Shown here: positions 7,663 through 10,018 of the stretch, in pieces
Layout: every line of letters starts with the position of its first letter
Numbering within the stretch: position 1 is the stretch's first letter
Position numbers and translations under genes: made by a program
Notes under the pieces: model-generated
Databases searched by the model: none
What the model was told of the DNA's origin: nothing
What the model saw: only the letters and a program-made list of their open reading frames with translations
Source: Sulfurisphaera javensis
GTDB taxonomy: Archaea; Thermoproteota; Thermoprotei_A; Sulfolobales; Sulfolobaceae
Length of the DNA: 24,000 nt
Assembly (NCBI RefSeq): GCF_041154675.1
Contig: NZ_AP031322.1
Span: 1,711,812-1,735,811, forward strand
Reading direction: 5' to 3'

Positions 7663-8598
7663 GTGACTTTAAAAACTCTGATTTTACTCTTTATCATTAC
7701 GGTATCTTCCTTTACTATCTGTGCTGTTACAAATCAAGTTAATCATTCAGTTATTATAATTGGAAAGAAAAATCTAACTATTTCCGGGCTAAATATAGTA
7801 AATGGTAATATAACAATTATTAACTCAAGTAATATAGTAATAGAAAATAATATGATATATAACAGTATCTATTTTGGCATATTCGTGTATAATTCTACTA
7901 ATATTACGATAGAGCATAATGTGATATCTAATTCTTATTATGATGGAATATCTATAAGAAAATCAAGTAGTGTAATTATAAAATATAACATTATATCAAA
8001 TGATACAAATGGTAATGGAATATCTATATGGGATAATAGTAAAAATGTAATTATTAGTAATAATCTTCTATCTAATGATGATTACGGAATTTTTATACTT
8101 ATGAGTTCTATTGTTAATATATATAATAATACTCTCTTTAAGATATATTATTATGGAATTTATCTTTATCAAGTTAGTGATATAAAAGTGTTGAATAATT
8201 CCATTTCTTTCTCTGACGTTGGAATTGAAACTGAATACGGAAATATAATCCTTATCCTTTCAAATATAATTAAATATGATCTAGTTGGCGTTTATATAGG
8301 AGATGGTTTAGAAAACTTTAGCTTGATAAATAATATAATTCAAAACTCTAGGTTTTTTGGCATTTTAATTAAATATTATCCTGAAGAATTTGAATATGAA
8401 GAGAATAGTTTTCTTAATAATACAGCTAATCTTTTTTATGAGTATAATAGTACTTTACCTAAACAACAAGTTATAGGAGCAGTTCCTCCAACTACTACAT
8501 CAGAAGAAATAAACAGGACTAATTATCTTTATTATTTTTTAGTTATAGTTCCAGTATCTCTCATCATAGCATATCTACTGAGGAGGAGAAGAAAGTAA
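7663..8598 (+). CDS. Secreted, membrane-anchored right-handed parallel beta-helix repeat protein (NosD/PbH1-like), probably heavily N-glycosylated
   Basis: N-terminal hydrophobic signal. Repeated ~22-aa units of the type NxxIxxNxI (IENNMIYNS, IEHNVISNS, IKYNIISND, ISNNLLSND, LNNSISFSD, INNIIQNS). About 13 N-x-S/T sequons. Ser/Thr-rich linker PPTTTSEE, then a C-terminal TM helix plus RRRRK. Confidence 0.7.
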   Translation: MTLKTLILLFIITVSSFTICAVTNQVNHSVIIIGKKNLTISGLNIVNGNITIINSSNIVIENNMIYNSIYFGIFVYNSTNITIEHNVISNSYYDGISIRKSSSVIIKYNIISNDTNGNGISIWDNSKNVIISNNLLSNDDYGIFILMSSIVNIYNNTLFKIYYYGIYLYQVSDIKVLNNSISFSDVGIETEYGNIILILSNIIKYDLVGVYIGDGLENFSLINNIIQNSRFFGILIKYYPEEFEYEENSFLNNTANLFYEYNSTLPKQQVIGAVPPTTTSEEINRTNYLYYFLVIVPVSLIIAYLLRRRRK

Positions 8599-8808
8599 TT
8601 CCCTCATTTCTTTTTCATATTTAATCATCTCAAGGTATTCTTTCTCACTAATTTTACTTACAATCATACCATAGCTTACTACTACATAATCTCCTTCCTT
8701 TATGTCATCCTCATTATTTATAACTGGTTCTACTATACCATTTCCATAATCAACAAATGCAATCATTCCCTCAATTTGTACAACTTTCGCAGGTAAACTT
8801 ATGCACAT
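8575..8808 (-). CDS. hypC: Hydrogenase maturation chaperone HypC/HupF family
   Basis: 77 aa. N-terminal MCISLPAKVVQIEG carries the essential Cys2, and the beta-barrel-like core GDYVVVSYG is present. Confidence 0.85.
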   Translation of the reverse strand: MCISLPAKVVQIEGMIAFVDYGNGIVEPVINNEDDIKEGDYVVVSYGMIVSKISEKEYLEMIKYEKEMRELLSSPPQ

Positions 8809-8851
8809 AAAATAATAATATTTTTTATACTTTTAAATCTTCATATATTTT
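8809..8851. promoter_or_regulatory. 43-bp bidirectional promoter region between hypC (minus) and the large-subunit-like gene (plus)
   Basis: TATA-like TTTTTATAC lies about 25 nt upstream of the ATG at 8852. On the other strand TTTAAAAGTAT lies about 25 nt upstream of the ATG at 8808. There is no room for 5' leaders. Confidence 0.4.
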
Positions 8852-10018
8852 ATGAGTTTATATGATTTAGAGATTATTGACCTTGATGTCTTCGTTAAAG
8901 AGGGAAAAGTAGTTAAAGCAAAATGTTCTGGTAATAAAATTAGAGGATTTGAGAAGTCTTTTATAGGAAAGGAAGCTAAAATATTTTATGAAATTTTACC
9001 TAGAGTTTTAGCAACGTGTAGTCAATCCCACTTATATGTATATCTACAACCTCATATGAATACTCCAATAACTGAAATACTTATGACCCTCGAAATAGTT
9101 GATAGCCATTTAAAGCATCCCTATGCCTATTGGTTTCCTCATTTAATAAAAGATGAGCAGTTCTCTTTTCCATCCGGTGATAAATTTAAAAGAGTTAGTT
9201 TAATTTCAAGAAAGATAAAAGAATTAATGGAAAAGATAGGAGGAAGATGGCCTCATATTGACTATATAAAAGAAAATAAAGAGATAAGATTAAGAAAAGA
9301 TGATATAAAAGATATTACAAGTTTCATAGAGAATGAATTATTGGGAATGAGTATTGAAGATTTTTTAAGCGTAAAAAACATAGAGGATTTTTCTGGCGAT
9401 ATGAAGTTATTGATTGAAAAAGGAATTGAAGCATTAGACTGGAATACTGGTCTTAGAGATCATTTAGTCGTAGGATATCCATTTTCTGGTAATTTTGATT
9501 ATAATAAAATAGAGGATAAAGGTATTGAAGTACTCTATGATGGTAAAAAAGTAGAAGTAGGGCCTTTGGCTCAAGCATTAACTTTTGATCAACTAGTTAA
9601 AAATTATTTTAATAAATATGGACCTTCTCCTCTTTTAAGAGAAATATCTAGAGTGAAAGTCCTTGCAAAATTATTAAATAATATTAGAGATACTGAGTTA
9701 AAAAGTGAGAAATTCGAACCTCAAGACGGACATTTTATTTCATTTGCTGAATCAATAAGAGGGTCACTAATTCATGATTACATAATAAAAGATGGTAAGA
9801 TTTTATCGTATAAAATTATTCAACCAACAACATTTATAGCATCACCTAATGGTGCTTTAGAAAAATCAGTGGTAGGATTACATATTAAAAATCCTAAAGA
9901 TCCAGTTGAATTAGCATTAACTGTTTCTTCATTGGATACATGCTTCGTAACAAGAGTTAAAGTATTTGATGATAATAATAATCTATTAACAACAAAAAGA
10001 ATTGGAGGTTTTTGCTAA
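8852..10018 (+). CDS. [NiFe]-hydrogenase large-subunit-like protein lacking half of the active-site ligands (candidate HupK/HoxV-type maturation scaffold)
   Basis: 388 aa. [31 protein letters not shown] aligns to RGxE..L.GR...RxCGxCxxxH with the first Cys replaced by Leu. GGRWPH and [27 protein letters not shown] align to GGQWPH and [27 protein letters not shown] of the 13279..14808 large subunit. C-terminal [11 protein letters not shown] replaces DPCxxCxxH (second Cys to Thr, His to Lys). The N-terminal RxEGH motif is absent. Confidence 0.75.

Follow-up and report, generated by a model that had tools for sequence, protein, structure and literature searches.

What does the large subunit of a [NiFe]-hydrogenase do once it has lost half of the cysteines that hold its metals? 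The question is raised by a 24,000-nucleotide stretch of the Sulfurisphaera javensis chromosome (NZ_AP031322.1, positions 1,711,812 to 1,735,811; hereafter the window), a hydrogenase island of 32% G+C in which the gene for a shortened large subunit (LSU) homolog, SJAV_18970, stands back to back with that for a HypC paralog. A first-pass annotation, made from the DNA alone, had likened the two to the HupK/HoxV scaffolds. In bacteria making hydrogenase under O2, HoxV and HupK are carriers of Fe(CN)2CO and interact with HypC and HupF (PMC12134894, PMC3534401); such scaffolds have been described in Pseudomonadota only, and their precise role was listed as open in a 2025 maturation review (PMC12134894). 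Aerobic Sulfolobales oxidize H2, including atmospheric H2, at 65–80 °C and low pH (PMC11018855). Judged by analogy, the real and conserved module found here in Sulfolobales is an archaeal counterpart of the HupK/HoxV–HypC pair that has not been described before; it has features of its own, and its function is a proposed one.

A putatively non-catalytic large-subunit homolog

The open reading frame (ORF; ATG at 8852, TAA stop at 10016–10018) specifies a product 100% identical to SJAV_18970, which is annotated as a "hypothetical protein"; its relatives carry either that name or "nickel-dependent hydrogenase large subunit" in public records. Pfam PF00374 matches only the C-terminal quarter of the protein (54 bits, gathering score 25.8), and in the NCBIfam LSU models it falls far under every cut-off (e.g. 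NF033181, 84 bits versus 600).

When aligned with the window's two full-length LSUs (509 and 507 amino acids, aa), SJAV_18970 proved to be about 120 aa shorter and devoid of the N-terminal RxEGH motif, which reads RVEGD or RVEGH in those proteins; RGFE, GGRWPH and a further 27-residue block are present. In the first cysteine motif (L1), where the window LSUs read R/K-[VI]-CG[IV]CGA[ST]H, Leu replaces the first Cys (LATC). The second motif (L2), D[AP]CxxCxVH in the window LSUs, has become DTCFVTRVK, with Thr for the second Cys and Lys for the C-terminal His, so that no protease cleavage site remains. The four ligand Cys, RxEGH and the C-terminal His being incomplete or missing, and no small-subunit gene adjoining it in any locus, SJAV_18970 is, on its motifs, best described as a non-catalytic homolog of the [NiFe]-hydrogenase large subunit.

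An AlphaFold2 (AF2) model derived from the family alignment (pLDDT 92.4, pTM 0.92) predicts an LSU fold with high confidence; in its last block, the tail that ends in C388, the pLDDT is 71. The best Foldseek matches in the PDB are LSUs, the highest TM-score being to Mycobacterium smegmatis Huc (7utd_A, TMq 0.75), which among solved structures also ranks first by sequence (E-value=5e-15). Group 2e (Hys) and group 2a (Huc) LSUs are the closest relatives by both measures. The nearest catalytic proteins carry RVCGICSQSH and DACLVC; the family of SJAV_18970 shares CSQSH and the hydrophobic strand pattern after L2 with the 2e/2a proteins, and differs from them in the two ligand Cys, RxEGH, cleavage-site His, 120 or so residues and partner small subunit that it has lost.

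In catalytic LSUs the CN ligands are contacted by the PRG-motif Arg and by the Ser that precedes D-x-C. Both residues are retained in SJAV_18970 together with C56 and C364, while those needed to bind Ni, to transfer protons and to be matured by proteolysis are gone.

The first-pass annotation had placed the ORF and its L1 and L2 remnants at the positions listed in Table 1, and all of these coordinates and motifs are exact. Its assignment of homology to the catalytic LSUs of the window agrees with PF00374, the AF2 model and Foldseek, the two full-length LSUs bear out the shortening and the loss of RxEGH, and its view of the protein as non-catalytic is borne out by the missing ligand Cys, RxEGH, cleavage His and paired small subunit. 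Its by-eye alignment, in which two of the four Ni–Fe cysteines are kept and the terminal His is lost, is upheld as well, but the inventory of cysteines was incomplete: besides C56 and C364 there is a third invariant Cys, C388, which had been overlooked.

Conservation of the family

A homology search recovered 25 clusters of 379–393 aa with 44–100% identity to SJAV_18970. The named members are all Sulfolobaceae (Sulfurisphaera, Saccharolobus shibatae, Sulfolobus sp., Acidianus manzaensis, 'Ca. A. copahuensis' and Metallosphaera), and a gap in E-value from 1e-103 to 1e-20 separates them from the first catalytic LSUs. Of the 1.84 billion representatives in a 50%-identity library, one was a full-length member and others were fragments, which indicates that the family is narrow. 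A contig labelled 'Candidatus Aenigmatarchaeota' (L003, JAVYPJ010000005.1) also carries a module of the Sulfolobales type (57% identity, KRIGGFC, MCLSFPAKV) and has probably been mis-binned.

The alignment of the 25 clusters has 79 invariant columns, among them C56 and H60 of L1, R303 and H308 of ESIRGxLxH, S360, D362 and C364 of SSLDxCF, and the further blocks HPYxYWxP and QPT. The sequence KR[IV]GG[FL]C followed directly by the stop codon is found in 25/25 clusters and in all nine loci, C388 being its last residue. Between SJAV_18970 and its S. shibatae homolog dN is 0.19 and dS 1.85 (saturated), a ratio of about 0.1 which, with the invariant motifs, shows that the family is under purifying selection; the relaxed ratio of a decaying pseudogene, named in the first-pass annotation among the results that would speak against its reading, was not seen. 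Identity between genera amounts to 47–55% for the LSU-like family, 58–67% for the 2e LSU and 52–62% for the two accessory HypC-like paralogs.

HypC paralogs and the divergent spacer

The pairing of the LSU paralog with HypC extends beyond S. javensis: in 8/9 loci a dedicated HypC paralog adjoins the LSU-like gene in divergent orientation, 43–112 bp away. A radical-SAM gene lies between the HypC paralogs and the LSU-like gene in Metallosphaera sedula, and in 'Ca. A. copahuensis' the HypC gene is non-adjacent. The intervening gene (PF04055 and DUF3463; L007, 6824..7840) was seen in M. sedula only.

Across loci the adjacent HypC starts MC[IL]S[LF]PA, and on alignment it is distinct from the canonical hypC product encoded beside hypD: Cys2 is kept and the conserved His is replaced by Ser (VVSYGMI versus VHAGYAI). 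HoxL and a second bacterial HupF-like protein (L010) are likewise PF01455 members apart from the hypD-linked hypC and keep the N-terminal Cys; they have Phe in place of the His that their canonical HypCs retain. The C-terminal extension of HupF, which matters for function at higher O2 (PMC3534401), is missing from the 77-aa product of ORF 8575..8808, whereas HoxL has 107 aa. It is for this reason designated a dedicated HypC paralog and not a strict HupF; the HupF/HoxL type proposed earlier is matched in the loss of the His and not in the extension.

Most Sulfolobales add a further, Cys-less HypC-like protein, for which there is no described bacterial counterpart and, to our knowledge, no described equivalent elsewhere. 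It has an N-terminal extension, M(S)EYDPYDMA, with Asp for Cys2 and VHAGYAI retained. Besides the copy in the window (Table 1), its gene was located at 7443..7673 in L008, 6097..6336 in L007 and 1456..1689 in L004. It stands in tandem with the paralog-adjacent HypC gene in A. manzaensis, M. sedula, M. yellowstonensis and TCF_bin25, a metagenomic Sulfolobales bin, and a gene for a HycI-type protease lies next to the HypC pair in both gene-called loci (A. manzaensis and M. sedula).

The spacer between the divergent genes of S. javensis contains two A/T boxes, TTTTTTATA (8821–8829) and TTTTAAAT (8831–8838), each centered about 27 bp from the more distant of the two start codons. Both are kept in S. 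shibatae, with one substitution in the first, and an A/T-rich block occupies the same place in RB850M. The boxes would be compatible with back-to-back archaeal TATA boxes driving leaderless transcripts; of the 43-bp bidirectional promoter in the first-pass annotation, the gap and the divergent gene pair are confirmed and the promoter itself is putative.

Hydrogenase and hyp genes nearby

The genes for HypF, HypE, HypC and HypD, as well as hydrogenase operons, are no more than a few kb away from the LSU-like gene. In 6/9 loci a 2e-type LSU gene (D[AS]CMVCNVH) is found 1–4 kb downstream in convergent orientation, and the group 2e hydrogenase is the likely client of the proposed scaffold. Genes of the helix-turn-helix (HTH) type (HxlR, HTH_45-like) recur near the module.

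The convergence on hypF reported in the first-pass annotation is real in S. javensis, where the LSU-like ORF (ending TGC TAA) and hypF (ending TAG on the opposite strand) share 4 nt at 10015..10018, leaving no room for a terminator between them, but it is confined to this genome: the hypF of M. sedula is on the same strand as the LSU-like gene, about 2.4 kb upstream of it.

Comparison with HoxV and HupK

HoxV of Cupriavidus necator (pHG1 record, L001:7381–8532, 383 aa) was used as a query, and its relatives were then collected. The 115 HoxV/HupK sequences contain exactly two invariant Cys, the second of L1 (sLCGxAH; C52) and the first of L2 (DPCv; C366), and in the joint alignment they coincide with C56 and C364. 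The reduced cysteine set on which the first-pass annotation had based its comparison is therefore the same in both groups.

Like HoxV, and HupK of Rhizobium leguminosarum, the Sulfolobales protein is derived from an LSU, is of similar length (388 aa, against 383 for HoxV), has lost RxEGH and the C-terminal His and has kept the Arg of the xRGxxxH motif; in HoxV, too, the PF00374 match is C-terminal only. Both are encoded among hyp and hydrogenase genes with an extra HypC-family paralog devoid of the conserved His. The hosts of HoxV and HupK make hydrogenase in air, as the Sulfolobaceae to which all named members of the archaeal family belong probably do too. Of the features expected of the scaffold family, a shortened LSU homolog, the cysteine pattern, and a hyp/hydrogenase context with an additional HypC were found.

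There are also differences. The Sulfolobales family is archaeal and, by its named members, restricted to this order, and the third invariant Cys on its KR[IV]GG[FL]C tail is peculiar to it; the tail is absent from HoxV/HupK, and 110/120 HoxV-like proteins end in Ala. GGxWPH is kept in the Sulfolobales family and deleted in HoxV/HupK, whereas PTEWNxHP is kept in HoxV/HupK and lost in the Sulfolobales family. The divergent pair with hypC contrasts with the order hupGHIJK-hypABFCDE around hupK.

A search of representatives with the Sulfolobales profile yielded many proteins of about 360–400 aa ending in DPCV.[YF]E. Two of these were examined, and both occupy classical HupK positions, one upstream of hypA-hypC-hypD-hypE-hypX-hypB and the other after rubredoxin and HybE. 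Both can be aligned with the Sulfolobales profile from end to end without a break. BLASTP against HoxV gave an E-value of 1e-4. No HupK-specific model was found in Pfam or NCBIfam.

Other LSU paralogs that may be partly depleted of Cys were met in bacteria: a full-length homolog of 493 aa from a Saprospiraceae metagenome-assembled genome (P0217/P0324), with L1 intact and a degenerate L2 (DTCLVSIVQ), and another full-length homolog of 548 aa (P0238), also with L1 intact and with DSCFPGSIR in place of L2.

Proposed role and its alternatives

The retained active-site shell, the loss of the residues for Ni, protons and proteolysis, and the dedicated HypC reproduce the anatomy of HoxV/HupK, and on this ground a role in carrying Fe(CN)2CO is proposed. 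We consider it fairly probable that SJAV_18970 and the divergent HypC form a carrier, or scaffold, for the Fe(CN)2CO intermediate and are the archaeal functional counterpart of HupK/HoxV together with HypC and HupF/HoxL. HypF and HypE would provide cyanide, and HypC with HypD would assemble Fe(CN)2CO, which the dedicated HypC would pass to the LSU-like paralog. There C56 and C364 would hold the fragment, with R303 and S360 contacting the CN ligands, and C388 on its flexible Gly-Gly tail might act as a cap, an extra ligand or a lid. The fragment would then be transferred to an apo-LSU, most likely that of the neighboring O2-exposed group 2e hydrogenase. An LSU-like scaffold with a dedicated HypC beside group 2e would be a concrete, genetically testable candidate for Fe(CN)2CO assembly under O2 in Sulfolobales.

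Several points weigh against this interpretation. The scaffold function is read across from HupK/HoxV by analogy only. C388 has no counterpart in HupK, so that the mechanism may differ, and the adjacent HypC lacks the HupF extension. S. shibatae possesses the module and has no 2e LSU within 8 kb. In S. javensis the 2e small-subunit gene is a single frame broken by an in-frame TAA, and the presumed client enzyme may consequently be inactive in this strain. Beyond shared character states, nothing links the family specifically to HupK. The Sulfolobales and HupK profiles each score higher against catalytic LSUs than against each other (hhalign: Sulfolobales–catalytic 387, Sulfolobales–outgroup 352, HupK–catalytic 309, Sulfolobales–HupK 241). 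Finally, the neighbor-joining (NJ) trees, in which the Sulfolobales family and HupK are sisters in 95/100 replicates (322 columns) or 96/100 (254 columns), give this grouping in 57/100 when the 28 columns around the Cys motifs are removed.

On the variable half of the columns the sister grouping drops to 34/100. When catalytic clades were lengthened artificially, they were drawn to the Sulfolobales family in only 0–3 of 25 trials, which suggests that generic long-branch attraction does not fully account for the grouping; the NJ signal would be no different if the same functional sites had changed convergently. Both the Sulfolobales family and HupK are without a region corresponding to residues 262–336, approximately, of the 2e LSU; a catalytic outgroup of about 430 aa partly shares this gap and the other deletions differ, so that indels are not decisive. 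As a shared-derived character they were dropped, the deletions overlapping only in part. A first NJ tree rooted at the midpoint was uninformative, and hhalign against a narrow HoxV set (70.6) understated the relationship that the broader HupK set from the representative search brought to the value given above. From the profile scores and the fall in NJ support, the HupK analogy may rest on convergence, and the alignments would fit either a true HupK ortholog or a convergent derivative of a group-2-like LSU.

That the family is an independent archaeal invention from a group-2-like LSU is a possible, if rather unlikely, account. It would combine a HupK-like cradle for Fe(CN)2CO (C56/C364) with a swinging thiol like that of HypE, namely C388 hinged on Gly-Gly. 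Jointly with the His-less HypC, the HypC-like protein without Cys and the class II aldolase-like gene linked to hyp, it would constitute a distinct high-temperature, O2-compatible route of cofactor assembly in archaea, without HypX. The PR[IV]C tail of HypE is a swinging thiol that carries carbamoyl/thiocyanate (PMC12130793). KRIGGFC resembles PRIC in having a basic residue, an aliphatic residue and a terminal invariant Cys on a flexible tail, but the folds are unrelated and the likeness may be due to chance. The ending F/R-x-V/I-C is also seen in some precursors of catalytic LSUs. Should the family have arisen independently of HupK, retention of the same two Cys would reveal which portion of the active site is required for holding the Fe fragment.

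Under a second alternative, which we regard as improbable, a three-thiolate site made up of C56, C364 and C388 would bind Ni or another metal, serving storage, delivery, sensing or regulation, and Fe(CN)2CO would not be involved. The three invariant Cys together with H60 and H308, the terminal Cys on a Gly-Gly tail of lower pLDDT, the recurrent HTH-type genes and the absence of hypA and hypB from the window would all suit such a protein. Yet one of the two terminal Ni ligands is among the Cys that were lost, the pattern of those kept is that of HoxV, a Ni-free carrier of Fe(CN)2CO (PMC12134894), and the most tightly conserved neighbor encodes HypC, a chaperone of Fe(CN)2CO rather than of Ni.

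It appears about as improbable that the protein is an LSU mimic which binds the small subunit or caps the apo-LSU, as a chaperone or assembly checkpoint that carries no cofactor. The predicted retention of the overall LSU fold and the position next to the 2e small-/large-subunit operon in most loci would agree with this, and HupF and HupK have also been credited with stabilizing roles under O2 (PMC3534401); however, pure protein binding leaves the strict invariance of C56, C364, R303, S360 and D362 unexplained, and about 120 aa of the catalytic LSU are absent.

A catalytic or H2-sensing subunit with unusual metal coordination, which the public name, GGxWPH, the Arg and several other LSU motifs might evoke, is highly improbable and is contradicted by the motifs (no RxEGH with its proton-transfer Glu, just two of the four ligand Cys, neither the C-terminal His nor a cleavage site), by the absence of a paired small-subunit gene from every locus and by the 84 bits scored against an NCBIfam cut-off of 600. 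A decaying, functionless duplicate of a catalytic LSU, as the missing catalytic residues, the lost 120 aa or so and the annotation as hypothetical might suggest, is highly improbable too and effectively refuted by an ORF of near-constant length (379–393 aa) in 25 clusters from five genera, dozens of invariant residues including the last, the low dN/dS, the confident predicted fold and conserved synteny.

Relation to published surveys

Literature searches turned up no paper linking HupK/HoxV to Sulfolobales or to archaea, in line with the remark in the first-pass annotation that no characterized archaeal equivalent was known. In surveying the hydrogenases of Sulfolobales, Leung et al. retained a hit only if both CxxC motifs were present (PMC11018855), a filter that would have excluded the LSU-like family; the supplements of Leung et al. 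2024 gave no match to family peptides or hyp names. Surveys that omit such a filter could count an extra hydrogenase, since the family passes the PF00374 gathering score and bears a "large subunit" annotation.

Other features of the window

Table 1. Location of genes and sequence motifs in the window, numbered from its first nucleotide
Feature	Position	Strand	Remarks
Membrane-type LSU (third LSU of the window)			cut off by window start
TAT-signal small subunit of membrane-type LSU, 449 aa	1887..3236	-	
HypC paralog, 77 aa	8575..8808	-	PF01455 at 54 bits; starts MCISLPAKVV
Divergent intergenic spacer, 43 bp	8809..8851		between HypC paralog and LSU-like ORF
Cys-depleted LSU paralog, 388 aa (SJAV_18970); proposed HupK/HoxV-like scaffold	8852..10018	+	PF00374 at 54 bits
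L1 remnant, residues 51–60	9002..9031	+	C56 codon 9017–9019
ESIRGSLIH, counterpart of catalytic PRGxxxH	9749..9775	+	from alignment with catalytic LSUs
L2 remnant DTCFVTRVK, residues 362–370	9935..9961	+	C364 codon 9941–9943
C-terminal tail K-R-I-G-G-F-C	9995..10015	+	C388 is the last residue
hypF (carbamoyltransferase)	10015..12237	-	TIGR00143 at 758 bits
HxlR regulator gene			listed between hypF and group 2e-type LSU
Group 2e-type catalytic LSU	13279..14808	-	RVCGICGASH / DACMVCNVH; PF00374 at 258 bits
Group 2e small-subunit gene	14783..15757	-	in-frame TAA at 15359–15361
CAAX-protease-like membrane protein (Rce1-like, PF02517)	15802..16329	+	between 2e small-subunit gene and hypE
hypE, 88-aa zinc-ribbon ORF, hypC, hypD	16420..19145	+	Fe(CN)2CO assembly machinery
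hypE	first gene of 16420..19145 run	+	C-terminus PRIC
88-aa ORF with duplicated CxxC...CG zinc-ribbon-like halves	17476..17742	+	between hypE and hypC
Canonical hypC	true start 17744	+	TIGR00074 at 81 bits
hypD	last gene of 16420..19145 run	+	GPGCPVC motif
Class II aldolase/adducin-family gene	19142..19873	+	PF00596 at 151 bits
Cys-less HypC-like protein (third HypC-like gene), 76 aa	20402..20632	-	TIGR00074 at 54 bits
Third HypC-like gene, maturation protease, 507-aa LSU, 180-aa small subunit	20402..23191	-	
HEPN-domain protein	23553..23984	+	far end of island

At the in-frame TAA, the 2e small-subunit frame reads ESTGL*FHKKEKGGF versus ESTGLQFHKKEKGGF in M. sedula and A. manzaensis, where Gln stands at this position. 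The stop is a nonsense mutation, a sequencing error or a case of read-through.

The class II aldolase-like gene is a conserved member of the hyp operon. It lies directly 3' of hypD in 6/7 hypD-bearing loci, S. shibatae being the exception, and the genes at this position, also in loci L002 and L005–L008, share an invariant NAGGNQSAR motif; no HypX was seen alongside them in the loci examined. The zinc-ribbon ORF has counterparts of 85–86 aa at the same position between hypE and hypC in M. sedula and A. manzaensis.

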